Notes under the pieces: model-generated
The model's database searches: none
What the model saw: only the letters and a program-made list of their open reading frames with translations
What the model was told of the DNA's origin: nothing
Shown here: in pieces, positions 1 through 17,480 of the stretch
Layout of the letters: the number at the start of each line of letters is the position of its first letter
Numbering within the stretch: position 1 is the first letter of the stretch
IMG/VR virus record: IMGVR_UViG_3300043395_003306
Span: 1 to 59,056 of that record
Length of the DNA stretch: 59,056 nt
Source: a virus
Lineage: Duplodnaviria > Caudoviricetes
Strand: one strand, 5' to 3'
Program-made: the position numbers and the translations under genes

Positions 1-524
1 GAAGACTTTAGCGGAGACTTACGTCCCTGAGTCCGCAGTGAGCCGTCGTCAGGGTCTGCGTCGGCGCGGAAATACTCCGCCCAGTCCGCAAGACCCATGA
101 TTTCCGTGTTCCAAAAGTAGTGGCGGTACTCTTCTATTGCCGCGGCACTTACTTGGTGGCCCTGCTTCTGTAGACGGTACGACGCCTCGGAAGCGGACAC
201 TCTTCCTATTAAAAGAGTGTCGACCTTTTCACGAACCGCAGGAGCCTCCAGAATACTGGATTTCATCTCCTGTGTTGTTTCGTCGGGATGCAGCAGAGAG
301 TAGATGGCTTTTTGCTTTAGCCACCTTTTACTCTTTGGGTCGTTAGGATCCCAAGCCTTAAACCCCTCAGGAAGGGTAAGGCCCTGGCGGATTCTACCAA
401 GCTCCGCACGCTCTATCGGAGCAAGTCCGTAGAGGCGTAGGGTGCTGTTGATAGTACGTTCCTGTGCGTCCTCGAGGGAAACACACAGGAACGCAACGAA
501 GTTCTCTGCTGGATGGCGTGGCAT
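1..524 (-). CDS. Hypothetical phage protein (partial, runs off the window start)
   Basis: Not in the ORF track. ATG at 524 overlaps the TAA of the upstream gene (TAATG) and the frame is open to position 1: MPRHPAENFVAFLCVSLEDAQ...IEEYRHYFWNTEIMG. Confidence 0.75.
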   Translation of the reverse strand, partial: MPRHPAENFVAFLCVSLEDAQERTINSTLRLYGLAPIERAELGRIRQGLTLPEGFKAWDPNDPKSKRWLKQKAIYSLLHPDETTQEMKSSILEAPAVREKVDTLLIGRVSASEASYRLQKQGHQVSAAAIEEYRHYFWNTEIMGLADWAEYFRADADPDDGSLRTQGRKSPLKS

Positions 525-2050
525 TAAATCTTGTGCGTCTGAAGGTCCTTCAAAGCACTAACCACATTTTCAATTGCAAACATTGCTCGAACTGCAGCCT
601 GCTGCGAAACACTCTGAAGTCCCATCTGCGACGCCAGAACAATATTGGCCAGCTTTGTAGATGCTTCCTCAAGCTCCGGGATGTACTCGATGAAGGTTTC
701 GAGATTCTCGGGATTGATGAAGTTGAGGGCAAGAACAGAGTCAACGGAAGCGACATCTGAAAGGGCGGCGGCTTCCTTGAGAAGGCAGTGCTTCTTCGGT
801 AGCTTAACGTTCGCCAGCTTTACTGCCGCCATAGCGGTTGCTTCTTTTACGCGATCTACTGGCGTGGAAAGGGGCTGTAGTCCGTAGAGCCGAACGGGCT
901 CGGACACGCTCGCCGAACGCTCCAGAAGCTCTACCGCCAGATTCTGCGGAACGCCGGCAGCAGCAAGGTGGAAGATACCGTCTACCCAAGACTGCACGCC
1001 CGAGCCGACTTTATCAAAGACAGGTCCACGAAGATCGCAGCTGTGGTCGTTCCAGGCGCGAATCTCTACCATTGAAGAAAACGCAGATGCCTGTGCCTCC
1101 TTCATTGGTAAGTACATCGCCGTCTTTCCTTGCGCTGGCTGCGGAGCCGCACCACCCTGCGCCGCTCCTCCATCTTCAAGCTGAAGTGGAGAGTCCAAGG
1201 GCATAAACGAGAAGTCTTTTGGAATTGCAATCTCGGTGGGAGACACAGCCGTGGGGCGCTTTAAATTATCTACGCGTGACAGCTGAATTTCCTGCCCAGA
1301 GGGCAGGCGCGTTGCAAAATACTTCCGGCCTTCTACGGTAACCTCGGAAATAATTTCTACGGGCGTGGTGACTACAATTGCTCGTCCATCTGACTTGTAA
1401 AACGCCCCCATTCCTCTGATGTTGGGAGAAGCAGGGAGGTTGAAGTTTACCCCTACCTGGCTCCCAACAATCATAGGCTGGAGCGCATACTGGCTGCCGT
1501 TTACAAACAGGGCCTGTGGGGTCATCTGTCCGGTCATGATGTCCATTAGCTGCGGAATAACGTAGCCAATGATCTGCTTACCGGAGCCCTTCTCCATGAC
1601 CTTGTACATGCCAAAGGTCTGTACGGGCTGCGCGGTTTCAACAAGCGGGTCGGGGTCCGCCTCTACGCCCGTCACAGTAGCAGCACCCATCTGATCTGCT
1701 GCCTGCATGGTCTCTTGGGGCAATACTTCCTGCGCCTGCTTCTCCGATAGGAGTAGGACAACGGGCTGCATGTTGTCCGGCGCAGAAGAGATCTTTACTG
1801 CGTACCCGCCCTCTGCTGGCGTTACCTGGATAACGTCGAATCTCTGGCGTGCAGCAAAAATTTGCGCAGCGTTTGCGGTCTTTTCTGCGTCCGGAGCAGG
1901 ATGAGAAACCAGCTCACTCATGTAATGAAGTAGTGACGCGTTTTTCTCAATGGCGTATCGCCACTCAGGATCCGCCATCACGGACTCAAATCGTGCAAAA
2001 TCTTCTTTATTGATTGTGTCCGCGATGGCCGCGCAAAGAGAGCGAGTCAT
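524..2050 (-). CDS. Putative virion/head-associated structural protein (508 aa)
   Basis: Long ORF with GAGGT Shine-Dalgarno (SD); many K-x-A motifs (EKTA, EKQA, GKTA, MKEA, VKEA, VKLA, LKEA); lies in the head-gene block. Confidence 0.55.
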   Translation of the reverse strand: MTRSLCAAIADTINKEDFARFESVMADPEWRYAIEKNASLLHYMSELVSHPAPDAEKTANAAQIFAARQRFDVIQVTPAEGGYAVKISSAPDNMQPVVLLLSEKQAQEVLPQETMQAADQMGAATVTGVEADPDPLVETAQPVQTFGMYKVMEKGSGKQIIGYVIPQLMDIMTGQMTPQALFVNGSQYALQPMIVGSQVGVNFNLPASPNIRGMGAFYKSDGRAIVVTTPVEIISEVTVEGRKYFATRLPSGQEIQLSRVDNLKRPTAVSPTEIAIPKDFSFMPLDSPLQLEDGGAAQGGAAPQPAQGKTAMYLPMKEAQASAFSSMVEIRAWNDHSCDLRGPVFDKVGSGVQSWVDGIFHLAAAGVPQNLAVELLERSASVSEPVRLYGLQPLSTPVDRVKEATAMAAVKLANVKLPKKHCLLKEAAALSDVASVDSVLALNFINPENLETFIEYIPELEEASTKLANIVLASQMGLQSVSQQAAVRAMFAIENVVSALKDLQTHKI

Positions 2051-2058
2051 GCCGTACC

Positions 2059-4059
2059 TCAGTAGTTATCTTGGGCTTTGTTTGCGATAGCCATACCGCC
2101 AAGTCCGAGTCCAATACCGCCGGCCATAACGCCGTACCCAAGTCCGCGAAGACCACTCCCTGCTGTACGAGCGGCGCGATCTAGGGCCCACTCTCCGCCT
2201 TTAAGAGAATGACGGTACATATCTAGCGGCGTCACAGTTTTGCCAGTTAGTTTTGATGCGTGTTCGGCCTGAGAAGCAAAAATATTAAACTGCTCTGGGC
2301 TCATGTCTTTCGGCATGCCCATTTGCTGCATTGTGTAGGAATGCACCGCCGGGTCTACTGCTGGTGTGCCTGCTCCGGCTGCCCCTGAGGGATTGATAGC
2401 GCCAGGACCCCCTCCCGCAGCTCCTGCTTGAAGTTGGTCTGCTTTTGCACGAAGACGCCCGCGCTTTACCTTAATACTGCGCGACGGGGCTGCCCCTGCC
2501 GCAGCTCCTGCGTTTTCTGTTGCGGGAGAAGGCGTGGCTGCTCTCTCCGCAGCAGGGCTAACCGAGGACGGGGCCTCTGGCGTAGCCTTAGCGGCAGGTG
2601 AAGCTGCCCGAATTTCTTCGGCTTTGGCGGCTAGACCACCCGATGCCGGTGGGGCGCCGCTACGTGCGCGCGGCAGTGTTGGCTCAGTAAGCTCAAATTG
2701 CGCGTTAGTTAGGTCTGGTCGTCTTCCGAGAGACCCAGGTGTCCACTCTGGTCGGTTTAGTACGCCCTCAGGTCCGGTATTTGGGTACTGCATTGAAGCC
2801 CCTCCGGCCGCAGGTCCTGAGCCAGACACAACAGTAGCGCGATCTGCCGCAGGATTTACAGTGGGACGTTCTGCATACGCATTTCCCCGACGACCAGCGT
2901 CAACTACCGTAGGCGGATCCACAGGCGGTTTTGAAGCTGCTGTAGTCGTTGTTGCTTGGGCAGGCGCCGAAGCAGCGGTGGGGGCGGCCGTAAGCGGCCC
3001 CGTTCCCGGCCTTCCAGGAGGTAGTTGCCCGCTAAGGTCTGTAAACCTTGGATCAATCTTTGGGGGTGTGTTTACTGTATGCCCCCCTAAAGTATTGGCC
3101 CCGGGCATGTCTGTCAGGGTTGTACCACCGGGAAGATGACGCACCGGTTTTGGCAGCTCTACCGCTCTGCCGGGTAGTACGTTGGAGTAATGATGACGCC
3201 CCGCACTTTCTAACGTTCGCCCAGCGTCGTCAATTGTTAGGGCCCTTGTGGCCCCTGTGGCCTTGTTTGTCGCAGTAACGGTAGGCGGGTGGTAGGGCAC
3301 TGGCGATGTATGAACTACGGGCGGAGCCTTTACCGGAGGCTTTATGACGCCGCTTACGCGCTTTGCCACCATTTTTTCAAAATTTGCCGCCGCAGCTGGT
3401 ACGTTTTTTGTAACAGCAGCCGCAGTAAAAATAGCGGTCTTTTCTATTTCCTTCTGCCGAAGAAACTCCCGGAGCGGGCTGGGTTCCCCGCTCGCGGTTT
3501 TGTTGGTGGGCGCCGAGCTTAGCTTTGACAGACCAACCGCTGCGCGGTCACCACTCATCATGCCGTATCCCTGACGATGCTGGAACGGCGGGTAGATCTG
3601 GTCGAGGAGAGACTGCGTTCCCGGAAGATCCGACGCTCCGTCAAACATGGCCGGGTTCATCATTGCCGACTCAACGCGATCCTGCGTAAGCGGGTAGGTC
3701 TTTCCGCCGATCTCAAAAACGTGAAACGGCTGAAGAAGGCGGTCTGCAACAATTACGGGTACTCGAAGCTTGTTTGTCGGCTTGCCTAGCTGCTCCTCGG
3801 CGCGAGTACGCCCGGTCTTGTTACGCAGCATGGCGTAGCCGAGAGCATAGCCCGCCTCCGGCTCAACGCGTGTCATCTCGATATCTACGTCGTACTTGGA
3901 GACGAACGGCAGCTGCTTGTGTAGTTCGCTAAGGACCTGCGCAGGCCAACGCTTGTCGTCATCCGGCATACGTGCGATTGCCGCAGCTTCCTTTTCAAAA
4001 AGCTCGGCAGCCGTCTTGTGGCGGATGAACAGAGGCTGAGATGTCGGAGTGTGCAGCAT
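2059..4059 (-). CDS. Putative virion protein with globular N-terminus, Pro/Ala/Thr-rich middle and Gly-rich hydrophobic C-terminus (666 aa)
   Basis: Start re-called to ATG 4059 (MLHTPTSQPLF), which has a GAGGA SD; the track start at 4245 overlaps the upstream gene. Confidence 0.6.
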   Translation of the reverse strand: MLHTPTSQPLFIRHKTAAELFEKEAAAIARMPDDDKRWPAQVLSELHKQLPFVSKYDVDIEMTRVEPEAGYALGYAMLRNKTGRTRAEEQLGKPTNKLRVPVIVADRLLQPFHVFEIGGKTYPLTQDRVESAMMNPAMFDGASDLPGTQSLLDQIYPPFQHRQGYGMMSGDRAAVGLSKLSSAPTNKTASGEPSPLREFLRQKEIEKTAIFTAAAVTKNVPAAAANFEKMVAKRVSGVIKPPVKAPPVVHTSPVPYHPPTVTATNKATGATRALTIDDAGRTLESAGRHHYSNVLPGRAVELPKPVRHLPGGTTLTDMPGANTLGGHTVNTPPKIDPRFTDLSGQLPPGRPGTGPLTAAPTAASAPAQATTTTAASKPPVDPPTVVDAGRRGNAYAERPTVNPAADRATVVSGSGPAAGGASMQYPNTGPEGVLNRPEWTPGSLGRRPDLTNAQFELTEPTLPRARSGAPPASGGLAAKAEEIRAASPAAKATPEAPSSVSPAAERAATPSPATENAGAAAGAAPSRSIKVKRGRLRAKADQLQAGAAGGGPGAINPSGAAGAGTPAVDPAVHSYTMQQMGMPKDMSPEQFNIFASQAEHASKLTGKTVTPLDMYRHSLKGGEWALDRAARTAGSGLRGLGYGVMAGGIGLGLGGMAIANKAQDNY

Positions 4060-4075
4060 GGAATCCTCGGCCGCT

Positions 4076-4084
4076 AGAATAGCA
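4076..4084 (-). promoter_or_regulatory. Possible extended -10 element (TGcTATTCT)
   Basis: TGn-TAnnnT in the short intergenic gap upstream of ATG 4059. Confidence 0.3.
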
Positions 4085-4088
4085 GACG

Positions 4089-4463
4089 TCAGTCTATAAA
4101 GCCCGGTGTAGATATCATAATGGATACCGCAGGGGCAGTGGTAGGGAGAAGTGCAGTCGAGTTTGTTTCGTTCTGAAGGGCTACGTCCGGAATTAGGGAG
4201 CCAGGAAGCGTTACGTCCCCACGCTCGGTAAACCGCGTACTCCATTCCGCGGATAACGCACCTCCTAGATCAAGACCCACAACCGGCACACGGACTGCCG
4301 CTTTTGCGGTGATGTGCTCTACAACTGCCTCAGCAATCGCGTCGAACAGGTAGGAAGCGTCGGTTTTTGTCGGATCATCATCAGGCAACGCCGCAGCCTC
4401 AAGTCTATACGTATCGACCTTAGACTTAATTAGGGCGGAAAGTTCTGAAGCACTGAGCGCCAT
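4089..4463 (-). CDS. Small protein downstream of the baseplate spike gene (124 aa)
   Basis: Coupled to the spike gene (TAATG); contains FDAIAEAVVEHI, a helix of the kind seen in small genes that follow spike genes. Confidence 0.55.
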   Translation of the reverse strand: MALSASELSALIKSKVDTYRLEAAALPDDDPTKTDASYLFDAIAEAVVEHITAKAAVRVPVVGLDLGGALSAEWSTRFTERGDVTLPGSLIPDVALQNETNSTALLPTTAPAVSIMISTPGFID

Positions 4464-5482
4464 TACTCTACCTTGAGCCGGGGTGTGAGGTATGGGGCGT
4501 TGCCGGCGACGGAACTAGTGAGGTTACTGACCAGCGTATCGAGTCCCGGCAGAGAGATGCCCACGGAAAAAAGGGCGGCTTTCAACTGTGTCATGGCGTT
4601 ACTTAGATCAGAGATAAAAGTGTCGCCCAGAATAAACTTCTCGGCCGCAGCCTCATCTTGCTCGTAAATGACCATATCCCCTGTGTTGTCATTTAGGGCA
4701 ATGCGTACATCTTGCGGCTCTATGCCAATTCTACCGGTGCGGTCTGCAACGATCTGTGCTTTTACAACCGACTCTTCGTTGTCCTCTCGTACAAGGAGTC
4801 GGTAGACAGGGTCCTCGACGGTTACGGGCTTATTGTCCTCAATGTCTCCGTAGAGTTCCGTAAGAGCGCCACCTACGTGGATCTCGACTGCGGCGTATTT
4901 TTCGTCTGCAAACGCACGAACCTTTGTCACATACTGGCAGGCCTCAACGTAATCTTCATCTTCTTCGGGTGGTTGTGTTGTGAACGCAAAGGAGGATCCC
5001 GGTGTCTCCATTAAGTAATTCATAGCGTGAGTGCGTATTTGCTTTCCCGTAGCTTCAAGCGCGACAAAGCATAAAGGGGAGATACCTCGAATCTCTACCG
5101 ACCCGTCACGGTTAACGTAAAGACCGTTTTTGAGCGGGGCGACCATACGCATGTCGCCAGGAGACATAGGGTATGGGCTGCTCGTACCGCCGACGTAGGA
5201 TCCGTCTTGGTCGACTAAGCTGCGATATCCAATAATAAACGCTTTGTCTGTTTTGTCCGAGTCGCGCGCAACCCACACCTGCGCGCCTCTTTCTGGGAAA
5301 GCTAAAATGCCGGCGCCCTGTAGGCTGTGTAGGTACGGATTAGCCAGTAACGCATCAAAATAAACGTTTCTGTCCCCCAGGTCTACGGACACCGTACAGG
5401 TAGACTGTGCGGGATTTACGTTTTCAATTTTCCCTGCCTGTATGCGGGCGGGGAATGTTCCACTTTTTGTTCCGCTATTCAT
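4463..5482 (-). CDS. Baseplate spike/puncturing protein (gpV/gp5/gp138-like N-terminal OB fold, 339 aa)
   Basis: GKIENVNPAQSTCTVSV...PYLHSLQGAGILAFPERGAQVWV resembles the gpV OB fold; PGDMRM is followed by beta-rich repeats. Confidence 0.65.
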   Translation of the reverse strand: MNSGTKSGTFPARIQAGKIENVNPAQSTCTVSVDLGDRNVYFDALLANPYLHSLQGAGILAFPERGAQVWVARDSDKTDKAFIIGYRSLVDQDGSYVGGTSSPYPMSPGDMRMVAPLKNGLYVNRDGSVEIRGISPLCFVALEATGKQIRTHAMNYLMETPGSSFAFTTQPPEEDEDYVEACQYVTKVRAFADEKYAAVEIHVGGALTELYGDIEDNKPVTVEDPVYRLLVREDNEESVVKAQIVADRTGRIGIEPQDVRIALNDNTGDMVIYEQDEAAAEKFILGDTFISDLSNAMTQLKAALFSVGISLPGLDTLVSNLTSSVAGNAPYLTPRLKVE

Positions 5483-8400
5483 TTATGCGTAACCCCGGCA
5501 GGAATTAGGGCCTGCGGCTTACGCAGTCCAAATTCTGCTCCGTGCGCAAGCCCCGCCACGTTTGAGCCATGAATATCGGAGGTCCATGCCTGAGACGCCG
5601 CCTCGGTAAACGTGTCCTTGAGTCTGCGGTAGTTGGCGCGAGCAAGGAAGTCCTCAGAGTGGGTCAGAGGAACCTGTTCCATGCTCTTGAGCACGGGCAC
5701 ATGCTCAATCGGCGCAAGACCTTGCTTTTTGGCCTCACGATTTAGGTTTTCAACGTGGTCTAAAGCAATCAGCTGACCACGCAGGTATTCCGGGTGGTCC
5801 GGTGCGTGCTCTACGCGTGCTACGTTAGTCATAGCCTTAACGACAGTCTCAACGTTTCTACGCCGCAGTTTTACGCCAGAGTTACCGTAGGCACTAAGGG
5901 CTTCGTTAGTGAGGTACCCACGAACAGCGTGAATGTTCTTAGTGGCCTCAAGCAACTCATGTGGGTTGATCGGCCCGTGTGACAGGGGATCCCCCGCCTT
6001 AACCTCCAGCCCCGGCTTTACCGTTTCTAGAATATGGCGGTCGGCCAGAATGCGGTGCGCCTTATCGTTGACAAATACGTTGTATCCGCCGCGCGCCTTA
6101 TCCTGCTCGACCTTTGTTACTTTGCCGCTGACGGCCGCAATTGTTGCGGAGCCAGGTAGCGTAGCAGGGACCTTAAAGATTTGCTTCACACGCTCAAATG
6201 CGTCGGCAGTATAGTCCCCACCTTTTTGGGATGAGACGGCTCCGCCGGTGTGGAACGTCTTCATGGCCAGCTGCGTGACCGGCTCTCCAAGGGAGTGACC
6301 CGCAATTACGCCTACGTTTGTACCCACAGAATACGTGTGCCCGTTCTCGTTTAGCCCGTAGCACTTTGCGCAAATGCCTTTCTGCATCTGGCAGTGAAGC
6401 GGCGAGCGCACAATTACCTGAGGAATCTTAGCAACACGAAGTTGCTGGATTACCTGTGATGTCAGAAGGGTGCCCGCAGGTACGTCCTTTCCGCCGGTCA
6501 CATGCACTGGCTGTGCAAGGTACCGGTCATGAACATCGCGGTCGTCGATAGAAAGCGCGGAGCCCTTTGTCGTGTGGCAATCTTCCGCCGTAATTTGGTG
6601 GTCAATTACCGTATTGATGATGACCTTAGACAGGGCGCCAGGCTCTGCCGTGCCTGCCGCACGGTCAATTGCCCCCTTACGAGCACCGTGCATTGAAGTC
6701 CAATACTGGGAGGTAGTGAGCCCCTCTGCGTAGGATTTTGTGATGGGAAGAGCAACTGGGCGGTTCTTTGCGTCAGCAACAAGAATGGGCCCGAAGGTCA
6801 TCTGGCGGAACTGCTCCCAGTTACCGCGGGCCTTTGCAGCAACCCACTCGTACATCTTGTTCTTGCTAGTGCCGTACGCCGCCTCCCCCTTCTTCTTGAT
6901 CTCATCAAGGGCACCGGCGTAGAGCTGTACGATCTTTTGATCCTTCTCTGCCTGAGAAATCTTTGACGAGCGGATTTTCTTTTCCTCGTCCTCGTACTTC
7001 CCAAGAATACTGTCGCGTAACTTGATGGCGTCGTGGAAGTCGTTCAAGGAGAAGGAGCTTCCGTTAAAGTACGCAGCCTTTACGCTGAAGTCCTGTAGAG
7101 ACTTCACGACTCGTGCGTAGTCCTGTTTGTGTTCTTTGGCTACGCGCGTCAACAGGTTTTGCAGAGTTCCCTTGTCGAACCGATAATTTTTATCGTGCAG
7201 AAGCTTTTCGTCGTTCTGCATGTCTGGCGGAAGGAAATGAGCAATAATCGCACGACCAACCGTTGTTTCACGTCCGTGAAATGTGAAAGTCTGGTCTTCG
7301 TGAATCTTTCCATCGTTCCAGAGCTTGTACGCTTCTTCTGCTGAGCCAATCTTTACCTTTGCCGGCTCTCCCCACTTTGTTGCCTGGAACAACCCAATAA
7401 GGAGGTCTTTCTCTGGCATCGGCATGATTTGGCCCGAGGTCGGAGAAAACAGATTGTTTGACGGCATCATTTTCTTGGCATCATTGACCGCTTCGTTGCC
7501 AAGCGGAACGTACAACGCCATGGTGTCGCCGTCGTGGTCCGCGTTGAACCCGGAAGTGACCAGCGGATGCAGGCCGATTGCCTTGCCTTCCGTGATGCGC
7601 GGGGTGAAGGCAAGGATGGAGAACTTATGGAGCGACGGATCGCGCTTTAGAAGAACAGGACGATCAGCAACAACGCGATGTAGAACTTCCACTGCGAAGG
7701 GGTGCTTTTCGTCCACCATCTTCTTGGCTTCGTGGGGGAGGTAGTTGTGGCGGGCATGCAGCTCCTTAACTACGAACGGCTTGTACATCTCAAAGGCGAT
7801 GGGAAGTGGGATCCCGGCCTCGTCTAGACCCAGCTCCGGCGCAGTAATGATCGTAGAGCGGCCCGAAAGGTCTTGGCGGCGATACACAACAGAACTCTGG
7901 AAGTATGAGCCCTTTGTTCCTTCCATCAGCTCCATCAGGCCGCGGTAGTGCCGAGCCTTGGACGACTTCTGTTGAATATCCAGCCCACCTACGCGCAGAG
8001 ACTTCACCGCATCGTACAGGTCTGCAACCTGCCTTTGCTGCGCCGCCTTACCGACGCCTTCTGCCACGTTCTTACGCAGGGACTCGTTTAGAATTCCTAC
8101 ATTCTGGTACAGAAGATTTAGGTCGTCGACGGTCTGAGACCCGTCAGGGTTTACCATCAAAGGACGCATCGTAGGGGGCAGAACCGGTAAGTGCTGCATC
8201 GTATACGCGTCAACAGGCTTGATTCCTGTCTTCTTGAGGGCCTGTAAATACCGAATACGGCGGTACGCCCGGTCTAGCGGCGCGCCTTTTAGCTTCCCAA
8301 TCTGGGAGTTCAGGTCTTTCAGTTCCTTGTCGACGTCAATGTTCTTGAGAGCATCAACAATTACCTCAGTACCCAGTTTCCCACCCTGATGTCCCTCGTG

Positions 8401-11400
8401 CGAGATGAGCTTCTCATACGCCTTTTCATCAATCCCAGTAAGGGACTGGATGGCGCGCTCAAATACGGGGTTGGGTAGGCGGTGGTTGAGGTCGAGGTGC
8501 GTCCAGAAATTACCCTGTAGGCCGCCGGTTAGTTTTTTATCAAACAGACCGCCCTTGTCCTCAATAGTACGGGCCGTGACCTGCTTCAGGTCTCCCTTAA
8601 TTGTGGTCAGCTTGGACGGGGCCGCGAGCTTGCCGGTGCTGAACTTAAGGGTCTGCGCATCTGTAAGCGGCTGAAGAACGTACTTGTCGCCCTTCTTCTC
8701 CATATGCATGCCCATCGCACGCATGTAGTTGATGAACTTCCCCATGCTCTTATTTGGCTTGGGGTCAGGCAGCGGACGGTTTTGCTGAAGAGCTACCCAG
8801 ACATCCGACTGCGACTGGTCGGACTTCCAAGTCTGCGCTTCACGGAGAATGTTTGTCGCCCCGTGCGCCAGAAGAGCGTAAGTCGTAAGCTGGTCAAGTG
8901 TCTGACCGCCGCCGGGAATACCAGACCCACCAGGAGGCTCACCATTAGAGTCATACGCCCCTCCGTGCGAACGGGCTGTCATCTTCTTATCGACTTGATG
9001 GTGAAGCTTTAAAAGGTACTGGTCGCCCGTCAAGATCTGGCCGAGGCTTCTCTTTGTCTTGGGGTCAAATAGTTCTTCGGTGTCAGAGAGCTTGTGCTGC
9101 TTAAGCTCGTCCATGACCTTTTGCGTATAGTCGACACCCGGCTGGAAATTGTCCACGACATACGGCTTTCCAGTCTTGCGCGCAATTTTTGATGCGGCAG
9201 TCTCCAAAAGCTGGCCGATATTCATACGACTTGGGACGCCGGCTGGTCCGAGAATTACATCTACGGGCTTACCGTCCTTATCGTGCGGCATTTCGTGGTC
9301 GGGAAGGATCGTACCGATGATCCCTTTGTTTCCGTAGCGCCCTGTGAGCTTGTCGCCGACGGTAGAGGGCTCCTCTGTACGGACGAAAACCTTTACCGAC
9401 TTACCAGCACGGACAACTTTGGCGACGACTCCGGGGTAATCATGTTCCCAGAATACTGAGCCACGGGTGTCGTAGGGTGTAGCGAGTGATCGTGCGATAG
9501 TCCTCGCCTCATCGCGCGGATCAACGCGAGCAGGCGCAACAACTGCAATAAGGACATCTCCATGCTCTACTCGCTGGCCCTGCTTGATTACTCCATCGTC
9601 TCCCAGCTTATTGACGCGCTGCGCCGTAGCCTTGTCGGGAGAGGAGTACGAAATCCATCGCTTCTTGTCCGTCTGCATCCCAGAGAAAAGCTCTACGCTC
9701 ATTTCGTGAAGGTGGGTAGAGGTCAACTTCTTCGCTGCGGACTCCGACACAACGATTGAATCTTCAAACGTGCGCCCGTGGTACGTCATGTACCCAACAC
9801 GCATGTTGGTGCCAAGAGCTAAACTGCCGTCCCGTGTGTAATTAGAGTCGGCGACAACCTGCCCCTGCTTCACCTTGTCTCCGGCTTTTACAAGCGGGTC
9901 AGAGTGGAGCATGGTCTTTCCGCCGTTTAGCGGGAAATGGTCGTACAGCGCAACCTTGCGTACCTTGCCATCGTCGGCCTTTATATGAATATGCGACTCG
10001 TCTACCTTTGTAACCGTTCCAGCTACCGGGGCCGCGTGTGAGCCAAATGTCCCAACTAACTGGTCAAACGTGTAGTTTGAGTCCGTTTTAGTCTGGACTA
10101 GGGGAGCTTCTCGGTCCTTGAGCGAGATCGCCTGCTCCATTTGCTTTGCCGCAAACATGGCACGGTTGCCCGAGTTTGTAGAAAGAAACGGAACTAAATT
10201 TGCGGCAAATGAAAAGAGCCCCTTTGACGAAGGGAGAACGTACTGCACCTCTGACCAGGGCTTTTGGGCTGTGCGCCGATCCGAGTCAAAGACGGTAACC
10301 ATGTTGCTATTCGGGACAGGCTTTCCATTCTTCCAAGACACCTGATCTGGGTACGCAACTACAGCCTGCTCTAGGGTTCCTGGGGTTGCGTCAACAAAAG
10401 ACCCCTTCTTTACGTCCCACACACGAGTAACAAGCACCTTTCCTTTCTTACGCGCCCCAATTGGAAGGTGGAGAGAGATACCCGTGGCGTCGCTTTCGGG
10501 CGTCTGCACTGGGTCAAGGAAGCCCAAGTGAGATGCGTTGATAAGCTTGTCCTCGGTCTTAATTGTCTCTCCGCCCTTAATACCGCCAAAGTCGGCACCT
10601 AAAATTGTGGTGCGCAAGTGCCCTGAAAGGAACTGTAGTGGGTTCGTCTGCTCCGGAAGTTGCCCGGCGCGAAACGTGTTTCCGATTGTACCTGTGTAGA
10701 GGTCTCGGGCCGGAATCTCAGAAAGCTTAGATGCCCGGTCAATTACCGCGGTGATCTTACGAGTAGCGTCTCGCTGGTTCCGAGTAATGAACCGCTCTAC
10801 GAAATCCGCAGTGCTAGTAATGTCTTTGGCCGCAAGCGTCTGACGGTCGTCCGGCTCTGCGTGTGCGCGAGAGATGTCTAGGATTCTTTTTGACGACGCA
10901 AGCAGCGCGGGGGCAGTAACGTGCCCGAATTCCAGACCAAGCGTGTTGTGCTGGTCCCCGTCTGGGCGCGTTGTCTTCATATCGCTAAACAACTTTGCGA
11001 CGTACGCAGACGCATCCGCAACCGACATAGACGCCGCTTTCTTTTTTTCCTCCGCCGTCTTTGCAAACGTCTTTGGAATCTTAAGTAGGTCTTCGGGCTT
11101 TGCGCGCGCCTTGTTTACCTCGAACACCGTCTTGCCAAACGCCTTTTCAATATCGGCGTCTGACATATTTAGAGACTTGAGTACGGAGTAAACCGGAACG
11201 GTAGACGTACCAATTGCCATCGTGACGCGCCCAGTAGAGCGGTCGATATTTAGGTCGAACCCTTTTTTGCCCTGAAACGCCCAACGTGCCTCAATCTCTC
11301 CGTTGTCCGCGACGCGGTGGTAAACGCCAGGCTTGAGAAGAAAGACGCTGTCGTGTTGCCGCTCGTGACCGTCCACAATGTAGCTATAGCGGCGCGTAAT

Positions 11401-11682
11401 CTTTGGAATGCGTGCAACCGTTACGGTGTCTTCGTCTAGCTTCTTGCCCGACGCAATATCAACAAGACGCAACGTGGCGCGCACAGGAACAGCCCAAGTG
11501 CCTCCTTCTACGCGCTTCTGGTACTGCGACTGAATGTCATCAAGATGCAGGTTGTCCTGCACCTCAATCCCTACCAGCTCAAGGCGCTTCTTTGTTCCCG
11601 CCATGGGGAACTGGCTGCTAATCGCAGCAACAGCGCGAGTTTTGATCTCGTTAAACGCGGCTTCTGGGTTCAGGTCGGGCAT
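5479..11682 (-). CDS. rpoBC: DNA-directed RNA polymerase, fused beta-beta' single polypeptide (2067 aa)
   Basis: Beta motifs: QTPE, NRAMFAAKQMEQA, FEDSIVVS, GDKLTGRYGNKG, PSRMNIGQ, KLHHQVDKKMTAR. Beta' motifs: LPVLPPTMRP, RRQDLSGRS, KRDPSLH, NADHDGD, HGARKG bridge helix, CAKCYG, GEPVTQLAMKTFHTGG trigger loop. Confidence 0.97.
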   Translation of the reverse strand: MPDLNPEAAFNEIKTRAVAAISSQFPMAGTKKRLELVGIEVQDNLHLDDIQSQYQKRVEGGTWAVPVRATLRLVDIASGKKLDEDTVTVARIPKITRRYSYIVDGHERQHDSVFLLKPGVYHRVADNGEIEARWAFQGKKGFDLNIDRSTGRVTMAIGTSTVPVYSVLKSLNMSDADIEKAFGKTVFEVNKARAKPEDLLKIPKTFAKTAEEKKKAASMSVADASAYVAKLFSDMKTTRPDGDQHNTLGLEFGHVTAPALLASSKRILDISRAHAEPDDRQTLAAKDITSTADFVERFITRNQRDATRKITAVIDRASKLSEIPARDLYTGTIGNTFRAGQLPEQTNPLQFLSGHLRTTILGADFGGIKGGETIKTEDKLINASHLGFLDPVQTPESDATGISLHLPIGARKKGKVLVTRVWDVKKGSFVDATPGTLEQAVVAYPDQVSWKNGKPVPNSNMVTVFDSDRRTAQKPWSEVQYVLPSSKGLFSFAANLVPFLSTNSGNRAMFAAKQMEQAISLKDREAPLVQTKTDSNYTFDQLVGTFGSHAAPVAGTVTKVDESHIHIKADDGKVRKVALYDHFPLNGGKTMLHSDPLVKAGDKVKQGQVVADSNYTRDGSLALGTNMRVGYMTYHGRTFEDSIVVSESAAKKLTSTHLHEMSVELFSGMQTDKKRWISYSSPDKATAQRVNKLGDDGVIKQGQRVEHGDVLIAVVAPARVDPRDEARTIARSLATPYDTRGSVFWEHDYPGVVAKVVRAGKSVKVFVRTEEPSTVGDKLTGRYGNKGIIGTILPDHEMPHDKDGKPVDVILGPAGVPSRMNIGQLLETAASKIARKTGKPYVVDNFQPGVDYTQKVMDELKQHKLSDTEELFDPKTKRSLGQILTGDQYLLKLHHQVDKKMTARSHGGAYDSNGEPPGGSGIPGGGQTLDQLTTYALLAHGATNILREAQTWKSDQSQSDVWVALQQNRPLPDPKPNKSMGKFINYMRAMGMHMEKKGDKYVLQPLTDAQTLKFSTGKLAAPSKLTTIKGDLKQVTARTIEDKGGLFDKKLTGGLQGNFWTHLDLNHRLPNPVFERAIQSLTGIDEKAYEKLISHEGHQGGKLGTEVIVDALKNIDVDKELKDLNSQIGKLKGAPLDRAYRRIRYLQALKKTGIKPVDAYTMQHLPVLPPTMRPLMVNPDGSQTVDDLNLLYQNVGILNESLRKNVAEGVGKAAQQRQVADLYDAVKSLRVGGLDIQQKSSKARHYRGLMELMEGTKGSYFQSSVVYRRQDLSGRSTIITAPELGLDEAGIPLPIAFEMYKPFVVKELHARHNYLPHEAKKMVDEKHPFAVEVLHRVVADRPVLLKRDPSLHKFSILAFTPRITEGKAIGLHPLVTSGFNADHDGDTMALYVPLGNEAVNDAKKMMPSNNLFSPTSGQIMPMPEKDLLIGLFQATKWGEPAKVKIGSAEEAYKLWNDGKIHEDQTFTFHGRETTVGRAIIAHFLPPDMQNDEKLLHDKNYRFDKGTLQNLLTRVAKEHKQDYARVVKSLQDFSVKAAYFNGSSFSLNDFHDAIKLRDSILGKYEDEEKKIRSSKISQAEKDQKIVQLYAGALDEIKKKGEAAYGTSKNKMYEWVAAKARGNWEQFRQMTFGPILVADAKNRPVALPITKSYAEGLTTSQYWTSMHGARKGAIDRAAGTAEPGALSKVIINTVIDHQITAEDCHTTKGSALSIDDRDVHDRYLAQPVHVTGGKDVPAGTLLTSQVIQQLRVAKIPQVIVRSPLHCQMQKGICAKCYGLNENGHTYSVGTNVGVIAGHSLGEPVTQLAMKTFHTGGAVSSQKGGDYTADAFERVKQIFKVPATLPGSATIAAVSGKVTKVEQDKARGGYNVFVNDKAHRILADRHILETVKPGLEVKAGDPLSHGPINPHELLEATKNIHAVRGYLTNEALSAYGNSGVKLRRRNVETVVKAMTNVARVEHAPDHPEYLRGQLIALDHVENLNREAKKQGLAPIEHVPVLKSMEQVPLTHSEDFLARANYRRLKDTFTEAASQAWTSDIHGSNVAGLAHGAEFGLRKPQALIPAGVTHK

Positions 11683-11688
11683 AGCGAA

Positions 11689-11694
11689 ATCATA
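11689..11694 (-). promoter_or_regulatory. Putative -10 element TATGAT 6 nt upstream of the RNAP ATG (possibly leaderless)
   Basis: ggtTATGATttcgctATG with no SD; the same hexamer occurs at 16982-16987. Confidence 0.4.
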
Positions 11695-11759
11695 ACCTAT
11701 TGAGGGTCATAAGATAACTGCACTCGACACGAAGTCGTAGATGCAGACAAAGGACAACC

Positions 11760-11882
11760 ATGGAAGACCAAGACGAGCGCACTGAGCAGGTTGAAAATGA
11801 CGACTCCTCCTACGAGGATAGCAGTAGCAGTTTTGCAGACCAGTGCGACGACGCGGTGTTCGGATGGGGAGAGGACGAATAA
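11760..11882 (+). CDS. Highly acidic 40-aa peptide
   Basis: AAGGA SD, then MEDQDERTEQVENDDSSYEDSSSSFADQCDDAVFGWGEDE*; below the track length cutoff. Confidence 0.5.
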   Translation: MEDQDERTEQVENDDSSYEDSSSSFADQCDDAVFGWGEDE

Positions 11883-11975
11883 ATGCTAAGTCTTTTCTTT
11901 TTCTCGTTTCTTGTGGGGTTCTTCCAATTCTACGTTGACACAATTCCGCAATTGATGGACTCGCGCGCGTGGTAA
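11883..11975 (+). CDS. Hydrophobic 30-aa peptide
   Basis: Starts directly after the previous stop, with GAGGA upstream; MLSLFFFSFLVGFFQFYVDTIPQLMDSRAW*. Confidence 0.4.
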   Translation: MLSLFFFSFLVGFFQFYVDTIPQLMDSRAW

Positions 11976-11998
11976 GAAGAAGCCCGCTTGCCCGCCTA

Positions 11999-12283
11999 AT
12001 GAAAGAGGGGACAGGCGGGCTTCGCCCCGCAGCAGAAATTCCCGACTCGGAAGCGGGAGCGACTGAGGCGACGAAGCTTGCATTTTGTCCCTCTTTATTT
12101 GAAGCAACAGACCGAGGTCTCTGCGGGTTTGTTGCATGCGGAGAGTGCCAGTATGCCCCGGAAGGGCGAGGGTGGCTCTGCGCAACTTGCTCGTGTGAAG
12201 AATCCGTTTTGCCTTACTACACCGAAGGAGCATGCACAAAATGCCAGGGATGGAGCATAGTGCTGAGCCTGTGGAAGAAGTAG
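11999..12283 (+). CDS. Cys-rich hypothetical protein (about 94 aa)
   Basis: CGFVACGEC...CATC...CTKC; start uncertain (GTG 11969 or ATG 11999). Confidence 0.5.
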   Translation: MKEGTGGLRPAAEIPDSEAGATEATKLAFCPSLFEATDRGLCGFVACGECQYAPEGRGWLCATCSCEESVLPYYTEGACTKCQGWSIVLSLWKK

Positions 12284-12705
12284 ATTACCGGTGCGATTGG
12301 TGTGCCACCGCAATCTACACGGGCGATGAGGCCTATAACATTGCCGCTTTTAGTATGGGTATCGGGCACCGAACGGGTAACCTATGCCTAGAAGAAGACT
12401 ACTTTGCGGACGGGGGACACGAGGTGCTCGTCCACAAGTGGTGCTTCCGCGCCGCAGTTAGTTCTAGTCTGCTTGATCACGCATCTAAGCTAAACAACAG
12501 CTGCGCTTGGTGCGACTCGTTGTTTCGCCACAACAACCGAGTAGTTGTTGTGTCGCCGCATCAAGTTCGTATTAGCAAACGGCACGGCGGCGTGTTTCTT
12601 GCCCCATTTCAGTTTCCCCACGGAGATATTGAACGCGTGTTTCACGAAGACTGTTTCGTGCCGCACGCGGAGGGCTTTGCGCACCGCCTTTGGTCTGCCG
12701 CCTAA
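12232..12705 (+). CDS. Tandem CxxC...HxxC zinc-finger protein
   Basis: CDWC...VHKWCF and CAWC...FHEDCF internal duplication; true start may be 12250 or 12271. Confidence 0.7.
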   Translation: MHKMPGMEHSAEPVEEVDYRCDWCATAIYTGDEAYNIAAFSMGIGHRTGNLCLEEDYFADGGHEVLVHKWCFRAAVSSSLLDHASKLNNSCAWCDSLFRHNNRVVVVSPHQVRISKRHGGVFLAPFQFPHGDIERVFHEDCFVPHAEGFAHRLWSAA

Positions 12706-14858
12706 CCAACCTGACGACCCAGTGCCCGCTGAGAACCGCCAGCGGGCACTGGGGCCTTCAGGGCATTCATCGGGTTTACTTGCGACCCCGACTCTTCATT
12801 CATTAGCTGGATGACTAGCTGATACAGCGCAGGGTTCTCGGTGCGCATCTTCATTAGCTCTTGCTGCTTTTGCGCCTCGCCCTGCTCATCGCCAACAGTG
12901 TCAAGGTAGGCCTTAGCACGACGGGCAACGTAACGAAGATCTACGCCGCCTTGTCCAACTGTAAGCGGGGATGACATACCTGCCATAGGTACCGGCAAGT
13001 TTCCGCCCGGAGACCCCGCGTTTTCGTCGTATGCGGTCGCACCCTGCGGCATTCCTGGGGTTTGCTGGGCCTGTTCCGGCGGCTGCTCTTGTTCTTGCGG
13101 TGCAGCCTGTTCTTGGGCAGGCGCTTGCTGCTCTTGCCCCTGTACGGCCGCATTCTGCTGCGCCGCTTCCGGTGTCTGTGCATTTGGTGCACGCTGCGCG
13201 GGAGTAAGAGGAGACTGCGGTTGTCCGCCTTGAGCCGCCGCCTGCTCCGCAGCTTGCTGCTGCTGCACTGCCGCCATTTGCTGCTGCTGCTCCATCTGAG
13301 CTTGCCCCTGAAGGGCCTGGGCCTTGATTGAGTAGCGCGAGGAGCGTAGCTGCGCCTCTCCTTGAATATCTGCGGTAGCCGTCTGCATACGCCGTTGCAC
13401 GTCGAGCTGAATCTTCATCTCCTCGTGCATGCGCTTGACCTCTAGCGCCGTGTCCTCGCCCAGCTCCTCGTGCAGACGCTTGTCGGAAATCTTGAGCGCC
13501 TGATTTAGCTGTAGGTAGAACATAGACCGCTGTAGGTCGTCCGCCATCTTGAAGCGGTCAAAGCGAGAGCTGACCTTGGGCCACCGCATAAAGGCAGCAA
13601 TACCGCCAAAGATGAAGTCATTCACCATGCGGTGCCGCGCACGATTGTACCCCATGAACATGTTCTCTAGGGCGCGCAAAGATGTATTACTTCCGCTCCA
13701 CGAAAGGCCACCAAATACGAACTCGATAGGAATACCGGCACCCACCAGCATTTGCTCCGCGACTAGACGGAACTCCTGGTGCAGCATTAGCGCACGGGCG
13801 TCTCCGCCAAACTGCTGCAACCCGATGTTTACCGGCAGGATGGGGATGTAGTTGTTGTCACGCTTCCAGATAGAGAGTTCGGTCTCAATCTTGGACTTCC
13901 AGTTTGTAAGATTGTACGAACCGTAAGGTTGATCATTACCGCCGGTTGACGGACCAGGGAAGATCATGCGAAGGGGCACAATGTGCTCCATCGCAATACT
14001 CTCTTGTGCTTTCTTTAGCGTCTGAAGGTAGAAGGCGTCCTTGAGGAGCGGGTAGATAAGGGGGGATCCCCAGCCCTGATCCTTCTGCGCCAGCGTAGGA
14101 CGCTTGAGGTGGAAGAAGTTATCTGGACTAAAGCGGAGAGACTTACCCTTACGCGCGGCCTCAAGAAACTCTAGGGGCAGGCGTTCGACCGTCTCCGGAT
14201 CGCCCATCGTAATATCGTTAAGAACTGCGCGAGACAATTTGTAATAGTAGCGCGTAAGGCCTGTAACTTCGTTGTGCTTTATCTGGATGTTTTCTGGGTT
14301 CCAGCGCACTAAACGAATGTCACGTACAGAACGAATGTATACATCTCGCTCTTCTGCATAGTCTGCCTTGCGGCAGCTTGGGCAGCTAAGATGAAAACGG
14401 TTGTTCTTCCATCGATATAGCGAGCGATTTGCGTCCGCACGGTAGCGTTCCTTGCAGTGCCGACACGCAAGGTACTTCACAAATGGGTAGTAAACCGAGA
14501 CAAACGCGTTTCCGTACGCGAAGTAGTCTAGCCCGGCTTCTACTTGGAACTGCCGGAGATTAAGCTGCTCCTCTAGATCCTGATACAGCCTCCGCTTACC
14601 GGGGTCGTCTGTGTCAAAGATAATAGGAGTAACGGGGTACTCCGCCATCTTTGTACATGCGACGTTGATAATTGGGTTTGACAGGAAGTAGTAACGACAC
14701 CAATTTAAAAGCTGGTGTACGTTGTCGGGTAAGAACTGCTGCGCAACATCAAAGAATGGCGACGGGTAGCGAACACCAAAGCTACGCTGCCCGCTACTTT
14801 GAAGATTTCGGGTGTTAAACCGGTCCCCAGAATCTACCGATGCACTAAAGAAGTTCAT
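12702..14858 (-). CDS. Putative portal protein with Zn-ribbon insertion and Gln/Ala-rich tail (718 aa)
   Basis: WCRYYFLSNPIINVACTKMAEYP, RWNPENI, FFHLKRP, GWGSPLI and GIPIEFVFG resemble phage portal proteins. Confidence 0.7.
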   Translation of the reverse strand: MNFFSASVDSGDRFNTRNLQSSGQRSFGVRYPSPFFDVAQQFLPDNVHQLLNWCRYYFLSNPIINVACTKMAEYPVTPIIFDTDDPGKRRLYQDLEEQLNLRQFQVEAGLDYFAYGNAFVSVYYPFVKYLACRHCKERYRADANRSLYRWKNNRFHLSCPSCRKADYAEERDVYIRSVRDIRLVRWNPENIQIKHNEVTGLTRYYYKLSRAVLNDITMGDPETVERLPLEFLEAARKGKSLRFSPDNFFHLKRPTLAQKDQGWGSPLIYPLLKDAFYLQTLKKAQESIAMEHIVPLRMIFPGPSTGGNDQPYGSYNLTNWKSKIETELSIWKRDNNYIPILPVNIGLQQFGGDARALMLHQEFRLVAEQMLVGAGIPIEFVFGGLSWSGSNTSLRALENMFMGYNRARHRMVNDFIFGGIAAFMRWPKVSSRFDRFKMADDLQRSMFYLQLNQALKISDKRLHEELGEDTALEVKRMHEEMKIQLDVQRRMQTATADIQGEAQLRSSRYSIKAQALQGQAQMEQQQQMAAVQQQQAAEQAAAQGGQPQSPLTPAQRAPNAQTPEAAQQNAAVQGQEQQAPAQEQAAPQEQEQPPEQAQQTPGMPQGATAYDENAGSPGGNLPVPMAGMSSPLTVGQGGVDLRYVARRAKAYLDTVGDEQGEAQKQQELMKMRTENPALYQLVIQLMNEESGSQVNPMNALKAPVPAGGSQRALGRQVG
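13060..13330 (-). repeat. Low-complexity Gln/Ala/Pro-rich coding tract (CAG-rich)
   Basis: QQQQMAAVQQQQAAEQAAAQ...APAQEQAAPQEQEQ in the portal C-terminal region. Confidence 0.7.
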
Positions 14859-15562
14859 CCGGACACCTGTGCTGGCTGCTCGGTTGGCTTAAAGCCACGA
14901 GCTGCGTCTATCTTACGCCCAAGGAACCTTCCGCCCTCAGAACCAGCAGTATTGAGGATCATTGAGCCGAGTACTCCACCTGCCATGGCTGGCAGCCCGC
15001 CCTTTGCCGCTGCACGAATTGCTCTGGGTGCGCTAGCACCTAAACTGCCCGCAACACCTCCGGCGGCACCTAGTACCCGCTCTGCTCCCCCACGCTCACG
15101 CCCAGTGACCGGGTCTTTTTTCTGTAAATCAGAATAAGCTCCCAGGCCAGTTCCTCCGACAAGCAACGTACGTTGGCCTGGGAGGTGGCGTGCAACGGTA
15201 TTTACGCCTTTACGCCACATGCTTGGTCCTTCGTACTTACCGAAGTTCCCAAGCCAGCCTCCGCGGCGTGCGGCTGCCCGCAGCCCCTTACCGTGGGTAA
15301 TGTCGTCTACGTATTTACCGCCACCTTTAAGGTTTTTATTTGCGTCTTTTAGTTCGTCAGCAAGAAACTCTCGGTTCAAAGGGTGCTCATTAGACGAACC
15401 ACTCCATAATCCCTTCCACGAGTTTTTTGCGGTACTTGGGCGAACCAGGTTTGCCGTTTCCTTAAATGGCGCCGTAAACGCCGGGACAAATCCGCCTTCG
15501 GATGTATTTGCTATTTTCTCTAGTTCGGCAGAAAAAGCCTGAAGCACGGCGGTATTCATCAC
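14855..15562 (-). CDS. Putative internal virion protein, N-terminal ELEKIA motif, Gly-rich hydrophobic C-terminus (235 aa)
   Basis: AFSAELEKIA leader; GAAGGVAGSLGA and AMAGGVLGSMIL glycine-zipper-like segments; coupled to the portal gene. Confidence 0.55.
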   Translation of the reverse strand: MMNTAVLQAFSAELEKIANTSEGGFVPAFTAPFKETANLVRPSTAKNSWKGLWSGSSNEHPLNREFLADELKDANKNLKGGGKYVDDITHGKGLRAAARRGGWLGNFGKYEGPSMWRKGVNTVARHLPGQRTLLVGGTGLGAYSDLQKKDPVTGRERGGAERVLGAAGGVAGSLGASAPRAIRAAAKGGLPAMAGGVLGSMILNTAGSEGGRFLGRKIDAARGFKPTEQPAQVSG

Positions 15563-16958: not shown

Positions 16959-16981
16959 GGTGAGGTCTCCTTGCGCTGCTT

Positions 16982-17479: not shown

Positions 17480-17480
17480 G

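Follow-up and report, generated by a model that had tools for sequence, protein, structure and literature searches.

The DNA analysed here, referred to as the window, is the whole of IMG/VR virus record IMGVR_UViG_3300043395_003306 (Duplodnaviria; Caudoviricetes), a linear stretch of 59,056 nucleotides with an estimated completeness of 32%. Its minus strand carries P0001, a gene whose product joins the β and β′ subunits of a bacterial-type RNA polymerase (RNAP) in one chain (Table 1). A sequence-only reading of the window had described a phage-encoded single-chain β-β′ RNAP of bacterial type, with the β motifs followed by the β′ motifs in one open reading frame (ORF) of 2067 amino acids (aa), and this description held. 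The frame was intact, with 2067 codons and no internal stops, and Pfam domains of β preceded those of β′: Rpb2_3 (residues 341-408, weak), Rpb2_6 (PF00562; 554-908, E 3.8e-63) and Rpb2_7 (925-961, weak), then Rpb1_1 (1133-1258), Rpb1_2 (1323-1406, E 1e-26) and Rpb1_5 (1654-1959, E 3e-25). The length of the ORF and these E-values exclude a chance origin. In phmmer searches of the PDB, residues 33-980 aligned with residues 49-1040 of a cyanobacterial β (E 4e-76) and residues 1084-2033 with residues 150-1125 of Clostridioides difficile β′ (E 2e-116), while archaeal and eukaryotic second-largest subunits matched the barrel region only (E 1e-34 to 1e-26). That the enzyme is phage-encoded is borne out by the portal, baseplate and replication genes of the same virus record.

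Table 1. Features of the window discussed in the text. Residue numbers are those of P0001.
Feature	Position	Strand	Remarks
Fused β-β′ RNA polymerase (P0001)	5479..11682	-	single 2067-aa ORF
β module, residues 1-998	8689..11682	-	colinear with whole bacterial β; SI1 and SI2 absent
β′ module, residues 999-2067	5482..8688	-	SI3 absent
β flap-tip equivalent, residues 719-736	9475..9528	-	present, sequence diverged
β active-site loop GDK...GNKG, residues 776-787	9322..9357	-	two conserved lysines
β/β′ junction, residues 992-1005	8668..8709	-	no linker; predicted β-hairpin
β′ N-terminal zinc-binding domain remnant, residues 1016-1065	8488..8637	-	four-cysteine ribbon deleted
β′ clamp helices, residues 1187-1230	7993..8124	-	44/44 positions aligned
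Catalytic aspartate motif NADHDGD, residues 1380-1386	7525..7545	-	
Bridge helix equivalent, residues 1657-1693	6604..6714	-	37/37 positions aligned
Second β′ zinc site (C1702, C1764, C1771, C1774)	6361..6579	-	retained
Trigger loop equivalent, residues 1788-1841	6160..6321	-	30/30 + 20/20 positions aligned; SI3 absent
Portal protein gene, 718 aa	12702..14858	-	upstream of RNAP gene, same strand
Baseplate central-spike (gp5/VgrG-like) gene, 339 aa	4463..5482	-	start overlaps RNAP stop
728-aa protein	2059-4245	-	conserved downstream of RNAP-spike
508-aa protein	524-2050	-	conserved downstream of RNAP-spike
174-aa protein, open end	3-524	-	conserved downstream of RNAP-spike
1904-aa ORF	33843-39557	-	no Pfam match
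PKD-bearing protein, 1571 aa	40362-45077	-	
Baseplate_J protein, 1995 aa	45353-51340	-	

The structural elements of P0001 were mapped against Salmonella RpoB (1342 aa, canonical start) and RpoC (1407 aa) in a 46-row alignment, with element boundaries (insertions SI1-SI3, flap, clamp helices and others) that we take, in E. coli numbering, to be those of the RNAP literature. P0001 was colinear end to end with both Salmonella subunits. The insertions were missing, with 1 of 119 positions of SI1, none of the 105 of SI2 and 4 of the 188 of SI3 aligned; β 1101-1240 (83/140 positions aligned) and β′ 108-250 (107/143) were missing in part, and the first residues of β′ were missing. The flap (58/60 positions), the lid (13/13) and the rudder were kept. 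In the β active-site loop G776, D777, K778, N785 and K786 were invariant across 35 aligned relatives, and so were the three aspartates D1382, D1384 and D1386 of the catalytic motif. By this mapping, P0001 has all of the active-site and nucleic-acid-handling elements of an RNAP core. Residues 1016-1065 contain no cysteine, and a short loop replaced the β′ zinc ribbon in each of the six phage rows printed (four fused enzymes and those of phages Arash and D69, described below). The bacteria sampled for comparison have a β of ~1060-1270 aa and a β′ of ~1190-1440 aa; beside these, the phage halves of ~998 and ~1069 aa (about 995 and 1070 aa in the sequence-only reading) are compact, not radically so. 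The term "streamlined" used in that reading is only partly borne out: the β′ zinc ribbon is the single module clearly deleted in comparison with bacteria, and the size difference from E. coli is mostly due to E. coli's own inserts SI1-SI3, lacking in many bacteria too. A weak Peptidase_M23 match in the β′ C-terminal region (residues 1844-1900; Pfam E 1.5e-4, below cut-off), also seen in the precomputed domains of some relatives of P0001, is probably a common barrel-like fold and not a peptidase.

At the junction, β ends with ...MGMHME (residues 990-995), followed by KKGDK (996-1000; DNA 8683-8697) and YVLQPLTD (1001-1008). In alignment with the bacterial subunits the β C-terminus directly adjoined the first conserved β′ segment, that is, the linker is of zero length, in keeping with the earlier statement that almost no linker separates the halves near position 8700. 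G991, P1005 and D1008, which surround the junction, were invariant in the 35-sequence alignment. An AlphaFold2 model of residues 640-1460, made from a 37-row alignment (mean predicted local distance difference test score, pLDDT, 80; predicted template modelling score 0.66), joins the last β strand and the first β′ strand in one hairpin, with strands at model residues 353-358 and 361-366 and a pLDDT of 87-91 for the block. The best Foldseek matches of the model were bacterial β′ chains (E ~4e-28).

A joint of two genes at this position could have been an artefact of assembly, and the sequence-only reading had asked for reads across it. Independent contigs X3 (7623-8790), X4 (8435-9714) and X5 (8545-9282), from three DNA runs of three studies (two freshwater and one aquatic metagenome), all bridged 8683-8697, and over 7.5 kb around P0001 they differed from the window by substitutions only, with no indels or joints. 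Between 5000 and 12500 the differences of these strains were mostly transitions, and in the rows printed they were mostly spaced by three bases or a multiple of three; this spacing and the lack of indels fit purifying selection on the RNAP gene. One RNA-library run (X24) gave three short contigs on 8645-9361, from which transcription is not claimed, as an RNA library can hold DNA.

The same continuity was found in relatives. A public-protein search with P0001 gave 1380 matches among 7998 scored candidates, and each of the 120 relatives listed had both β and β′ Pfam domains (1914-2829 aa, 41-100% identity, nearly the whole query covered). At least 524 of 599 candidate IMG/VR stretches encoded a relative of P0001, and 80 of these loci were kept for checks of frame and synteny. 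A single continuous ORF crossed the junction in all 80, one of which (L052) is truncated by its contig end; in the other 79 the match to P0001 began no later than residue 27 and ended no earlier than residue 2036. Apart from L052, 72 of the ORFs were 2000-2180 aa in size and seven were longer, namely four of 2408-2973 aa and those of L062, L063 and L079 at 2193-2235 aa. The P0001 fusion is genuine and not an artefact of assembly. A search among shorter proteins gave 30 matches, mostly from short contigs; P0123 (1069 aa, on a 115-kb contig) and P0129 (994 aa, on a 172-kb contig) are possible separate β′ genes or frameshifts. The fused state is the rule in the family, then, though perhaps not universal.

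Some of the long relatives carry insertions. Of the 120 fused relatives listed, 14 have intein or LAGLIDADG Pfam domains in an RNAP of 2396-2829 aa (P0015, P0017, P0023, P0028, P0032, P0035, P0048, P0055, P0063, P0083, P0090, P0093, P0106 and P0115). The ORFs of 2408-2973 aa are those at L010, L012, L026 and L070 and at a locus from a Bacteroidales metagenome-assembled genome (MAG), L109, and in Vibrio phages D148 and D181 a homing endonuclease lies inside the RNAP region. The RNAP gene of this family seems to be a repeated target of mobile elements.

Among cultured phages the best matches to P0001 were Vibrio phages D69, D148 and D181 (187 kb) and Salmonella phage Arash (181 kb), with RNAP identities of 29-32%. 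In Arash/D69-type phages β and the N-terminal 470 residues of β′ are encoded by one gene (1525-1527 aa); the remainder of β′ comes from another (606-609 aa), with other genes between. Their β-β′ junction aligned exactly with that of the window, and their break within β′ corresponds to residue 1469/1470 of P0001. When one genome per prokaryotic species was searched, the best 80 matches comprised two full-length relatives and 78 rpoB/rpoC loci, the latter mostly separate adjacent genes, a few partial, with 27-32% identity to P0001, versus 37-89% for viral contigs. The two full-length fused RNAPs lie on a 162,553-bp contig of a Leptolyngbyaceae MAG (L108) and a 204,271-bp contig of a Bacteroidales MAG (L109), and they are either mis-binned or a hint that other branches of the family have cyanobacteria and Bacteroidales as hosts. 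One of the 78 loci, on a contig of 7.1 kb with the label "uncultured bacterium", has a single 1563-aa ORF (L110:164-4855) matching residues 484-1814 at 31% identity; its row is a long branch placed between the bacterial clan and the phage clan, and it may be another β-β′N fusion of a different lineage.

Two quick trees, with supports from the SH-like approximate likelihood-ratio test (SH-aLRT) and with bacteria chosen from the 78 closest tblastn loci, gave the same split. In the LG+G4 tree (46 rows, 1953 columns) all 27 bacterial RpoB+RpoC rows fell on one side of a branch with a support of 100, and 16 fused rows with Arash and D69 on the other (also 100). In the LG+C20+F+G4 tree (26 rows, 798 core columns) the division of 16 bacterial from 10 phage rows likewise had a support of 100. 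Among the bacteria sampled, therefore, there was no sign of the nesting within a cellular RpoBC clade that would have spoken against a phage lineage, and in these alignments the phage enzymes appear as a clan apart. The β-β′ fusion is common to the whole phage clan sampled. The monophyly of the fully fused rows relative to Arash and D69 was unsupported (40 and 12), so that the β′ split may be ancestral or derived. Three RpoB+RpoC rows with compact subunits, from MAGs labelled Gammaproteobacteria or Pseudomonadales (L128, L138 and L155), paired with Patescibacteria rows (L113, L121, L145 and L177) with a support of 100, and their labels are probably wrong.

Bacterial RNAP normally has five core subunits, assembled as an α dimer to which β and then β′ with ω are added. 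To ask which of these partners accompany P0001, we turned to five near-complete relatives of the window: one 81% complete, whose RNAP is 89% identical to P0001 (G001), and four 99-100% complete genomes of 182-198 kb, of which two have terminal repeats. Each had exactly one PF00562 match. Six-frame searches with Pfam models, in which positive controls were found in 14 of 14 genomes, detected neither α (PF01000) nor ω (PF01192) in any of the five, although very divergent analogues would escape such models. Use of host α or ω by P0001 is possible. T7-type RNAP (PF00940) likewise gave no match in the five, in a search made without a positive control, which says little.

A σ-like protein, on the other hand, was found in each relative. 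In none of the five did canonical Sigma70_r2 reach its cut-off; a 252-aa ORF of one genome (G002), with weak region 2 and region 4 matches, led to a family of ~250-290 aa that is present in all five and shows a Sigma70_r3 match in four of its five members. All 60 listed PDB matches of the family profile were σ factors (best E 4e-10), and the profile matched Gp10 of Arash with an hhalign probability of 99.7% (E 7e-27). When residues 1000-1460 of the window's RNAP were paired with the σ-like protein of G001 in a complex prediction, the score was 0.73, versus 0.00 for the best of three controls; among reference cases, 58 of 80 solved complexes attain this mark, as do 2 of 110 mismatched pairs. 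Docking runs agreed in at least 40% of contacts, and the pLDDT of the partner was at least 68. The predicted contacts involve RNAP residues 1188-1225, the tightest being 1194-1221 with σ residues 69-83, within the clamp helices. Because σ on the clamp helices is a textbook pair that has already been solved, the docking result shows likeness, not binding. The earlier claim that the enzyme is "self-contained" is not supported, given a σ70-family protein that occurs in five of five relatives and is predicted to sit on the clamp helices. The window itself (G000) gave no match to the σ-like gene, which is not surprising for a one-third fragment. Weak Sigma70_r4 matches in G001, G004 and G005 were rejected as σ factors; they belong to proteins with an N-terminal MerR/excisionase-like helix-turn-helix. 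These proteins, of 238-286 aa (L099:877-1647 in G001, L098:859-1719 in G005 and L100:895-1611 in G004), adjoin a conserved ORF of ~303 aa in the three relatives and may be phage transcription regulators.

The gene of P0001 lies between those of the portal and the central spike. With the window's portal protein, Arash portal Gp204 shares 29% identity (E 2e-83) and its D69 counterpart 33% (E 1e-98), and the order portal, small ORF, RNAP is common to the window, Arash and D69. Of the 72 related single-ORF loci, 63 have a portal homologue upstream, on the strand of the RNAP gene; only 63 of the 72 have more than 3 kb of upstream flank. For the gene whose start overlaps the RNAP stop, a Phage_base_V OB (oligonucleotide/oligosaccharide-binding) domain was found in 19 of 37 family members, and 17 of 18 named PDB matches of the family profile were gp5/VgrG-type spikes or tail lysozymes, all weak (E 0.011-0.81). 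With its α-like size this 339-aa product was considered as an α-like assembly subunit, a candidate that was rejected given its identification as a gp5/VgrG-type central spike. A spike homologue lay downstream of the RNAP gene in 40 of 85 loci. Further downstream on that strand, 67, 68 and 55 of 85 related loci carried homologues of the 728-, 508- and 174-aa proteins, respectively; among the 72 single-ORF loci, the 728- and 508-aa homologues were found in 58 and 60. The order portal, RNAP, spike and then these three ORFs is conserved across related loci. The three proteins had no match in Pfam, PHROGs or the ESM Atlas, and could be baseplate/hub or ejected proteins.

Elsewhere in the window, three giant minus-strand ORFs (1904, 1571 and 1995 aa) form a tail/baseplate block, and the replication genes encode a uracil-DNA glycosylase, a superfamily 2 (SF2) helicase, a DnaB-like helicase, a primase, a family-A DNA polymerase, a RecA-like protein, a PD-(D/E)XK nuclease and RusA. 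The SF2 helicase (17481-18887) was rejected as an orthologue of the Arash virion helicase Gp217 (best E 0.03). A tRNA scan of the window found none. Promoter-like matches of the σ70 type numbered 3 in positions 1-17600, versus 8.6 ± 2.2 in shuffled sequences, a weakly supported depletion that would be in keeping with a phage independent of host σ70 promoters. The direct-repeat families of the window, considered as a phage promoter motif, looked like chance, with no shared intergenic motif.

How does P0001 compare with known phage RNAPs? Multimeric-RNAP-encoding Caudovirales (mReC) were described from 97 contigs (Weinheimer & Aylward 2020, PMC7481178). As the available text has it, these are Caudovirales contigs from IMG/VR and metagenomes, some near or above 200 kb, with β and β′ matched by cellular hidden Markov models (HMMs), the motif NADxDGD and a clade apart from cellular RNAP. 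P0001 likewise lies on a viral contig, has β and β′ parts of at least 800 aa each by Pfam models (the mReC work used COG0085/COG0086 HMMs), carries NADxDGD and was set apart from its cellular homologues with an SH-aLRT support of 100 in the two quick trees; by these operational criteria it appears to fit the published mReC lineage. The main text of that work nowhere calls the subunits fused, "fused" and "fusion" being used there of crAssphage only. The capsid proteins detected in mReC match PF07068 (Gp23 type), and the terminase matches PF03237 (PMC7481178, available text). PF07068 was not found in any of the five relatives, in a search made without a positive control; a homologue of the Arash capsid protein, with a weak PF05065 match, was found in four of the five. 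Arash TerL, like the mReC terminase, matches PF03237 (23.9 bits, cut-off 22). Neither a capsid nor a terminase gene lies within the window.

The cultured phages Arash (Gp206 and Gp216, with Gp10), D69, D148 and D181 share with P0001 the zero-linker junction, the zinc-ribbon deletion and the portal-RNAP synteny; Arash Gp10 is the orthologous σ-like factor, and Arash and D69 grouped with the fused clan in both trees. They differ in that their β′ is split in two genes, while the P0001 family has one chain. The Arash paper, in its available text, names Gp206 simply "β" and does not mention a fusion. Given hundreds of near-full-length metagenomic relatives, the mReC lineage and these cultured phages, the earlier suggestion of an undescribed system is not supported.

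As described in the accessible parts of PMC7598289, PMC7824862 and PMC13282480, the phiKZ/AR9 RNAPs are also two-barrel enzymes related to β/β′, without α or ω and with a virion form, but they consist of 4-5 polypeptides, come as a virion set and a non-virion set, have diverged too far to be placed with confidence and lack a σ recognisable from sequence. P0001, in contrast, is one chain with strong similarity to bacterial subunits and a σ70-family partner in its relatives, and instead of split subunits in two paralogous sets we found one ORF, with one PF00562 match per relative. The crAss-like gp66 and YonO-type enzymes are, like P0001, single phage polypeptides with both catalytic barrels; in the available text of PMC7481178 and PMC7824862 they have no detectable β/β′ HMM similarity and lack most modules, unlike P0001, which is colinear with both whole subunits and has Pfam β/β′ E-values down to 4e-63. 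The β-β′ fusions of Helicobacteraceae and Wolbachia (cited in PMC7483510, accessible part), compared here by description, have the same β-β′ order and are cellular RpoB-RpoC genes that work with α, ω and host σ. No account of a fully fused phage RNAP of bacterial type turned up in a literature search that took in few subscription journals and no supplements, and in the available text of a 2026 jumbo-phage review "fused" and "single polypeptide" are both absent.

The reading that we favour, and consider probable, is that P0001 is a complete bacterial-type catalytic core, the only RNAP of its phage, σ-dependent and packaged in the virion. The phage would be a tailed freshwater phage of ~150-200 kb within a large metagenomic lineage, and one polypeptide would hold the whole catalytic core of a multisubunit RNAP, with the covalent β-β′ link replacing the assembly role of α and ω. 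Such a core would not be self-sufficient; promoters would be recognised by the conserved phage σ70-family protein of ~250 aa, which would dock on the β′ clamp helices and whose gene would lie outside the fragment sequenced. The RNAP would be made along with the structural genes, as the order portal, RNAP, central spike suggests, then packaged, and delivered with the DNA, so that phage genes could be transcribed without host RNAP from the start of infection. In purified Arash virions, according to the available text of the Arash paper, Gp206 gave 3516 spectra, the most of all proteins, Gp216 gave 1210 and the σ factor Gp10 gave 467; it is from this proteome and the portal-RNAP-spike order that we infer a virion-packaged holoenzyme. 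The Arash authors explain these proteins either by a role in early transcription or by the carry-over of whatever is abundant, and packaging is, in our assessment, the least secure step.

Several points weigh against this reading. The case for packaging is built on Arash, with an RNAP that is split within β′ and no more than 29-32% identical to P0001, and abundant enzymes might, as its authors allow, co-purify with particles. For the fully fused members, activity, σ dependence and packaging alike are deductions. The σ-like gene gave no match in the window, and the σ docked onto the window's RNAP was that of a relative, with an RNAP identity of 89% between the two; divergent α or ω could have escaped the Pfam models. 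The bacterial flap tip binds σ region 4; with a poorly conserved flap tip and a missing zinc ribbon, initiation or termination may differ from the bacterial scheme. P0001 reads NADHDGD, while most relatives read NADFDGD. The trees, finally, were quick searches without an archaeal or eukaryotic outgroup, with bacteria drawn from the closest loci.

Four other explanations were weighed. The same enzyme and σ partner might not be virion proteins at all, being made after infection to transcribe middle and late genes while host RNAP transcribes the early genes, including that of P0001. The virion proteome is indeed that of Arash and not of a fully fused phage, carry-over is allowed by its authors, and many σ-encoding phages use host polymerase, according to the available part of a review. 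Yet the RNAP gene lies between portal and spike on one strand, with a stop/start overlap and in a conserved order, its Arash homologues are the most abundant virion proteins by spectra with the σ factor alongside, and σ70-like promoter matches are, weakly, depleted in 1-17600; we regard post-infection synthesis as rather unlikely, if well within reason. An enzyme that recognises promoters and initiates by itself, needing neither a σ-like nor any other subunit, would account for the presence of all core modules in a single chain, for a window with no σ gene and for the loss or divergence of the zinc ribbon and flap tip, both near σ contacts in bacteria. We find this improbable, given that the window is only 32% of a genome, that a σ70-family protein occurs in five of five near-complete relatives and in the Arash virion proteome, and that the clamp helices are kept and predicted to bind σ (0.73 vs 0.00, likeness only).

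It is also conceivable that P0001 is a cellular rpoB-rpoC fusion, either bacterial DNA classed as viral by mistake or a recent capture from a Helicobacter- or Wolbachia-like host. Natural cellular fusions do exist (PMC7483510, accessible part), the closest solved structures are bacterial, and L108 and L109 are on contigs binned to bacterial MAGs. Those contigs, however, are of phage-genome size. The flanks of P0001 encode portal, spike and baseplate J proteins along with replication genes of phage type, and the fused RNAP recurs in complete relatives of 182-198 kb, of which two have terminal repeats. The best bacterial loci are 27-32% identical compared with 37-89% for viral contigs, and bacterial and phage rows were split with a support of 100 in trees that contain no Helicobacter or Wolbachia sequence; a cellular origin of this kind is very improbable. 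Just as improbable is a polymerase-like protein that has lost its catalytic activity or been repurposed, perhaps as a structural part of the virion or one that binds DNA. The H in place of F in the catalytic motif of the window might be taken to suggest it, and the RNA-synthesis activity of P0001 is putative, but the three aspartates, both β lysines, the bridge helix and the trigger loop are conserved down to 42% identity, more than 200 columns are invariant among relatives, and strain differences fall mostly at multiples of three bases with no indels in the rows printed.

In sum, P0001 belongs to a known enzyme class and to a large lineage, widespread in the environment, with cultured cousins, and is biochemically uncharacterised. 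What goes beyond the literature found is the one-chain architecture, the zero-linker junction, the loss of the zinc ribbon, the conserved σ partner and the portal-RNAP-spike module. A bolder reading, tentative and in our opinion doubtful, is that the family is the simplest complete bacterial-type transcription machine known, a 230-kDa chain with a small σ and without α, ω or zinc ribbon, loaded into the capsid beside the portal and ejected through the tail with the genome, so that a lineage common in fresh and marine waters would transcribe all of its genes independently of the host from the start; within that reading, the fusion, being common to every member sampled, would have arisen long ago in viruses, as opposed to a recent capture from a host. 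A natural one-chain core would be a tractable minimal model for RNAP assembly, initiation and termination, and with its small σ could serve in synthetic biology as an orthogonal two-component transcription system. The family is abundant, with hundreds of viral contigs, and its cousins Arash and D69 are cultured, with virions that appear to hold the enzyme. The shared junction is a discrete character for tracing a deep-branching viral RNAP lineage relative to the cellular enzymes. If the favoured reading is true, phages would have, in addition to the virion RNAPs of the N4 type (single-subunit) and the phiKZ type (multi-piece), a third way of transcribing early genes independently of the host.

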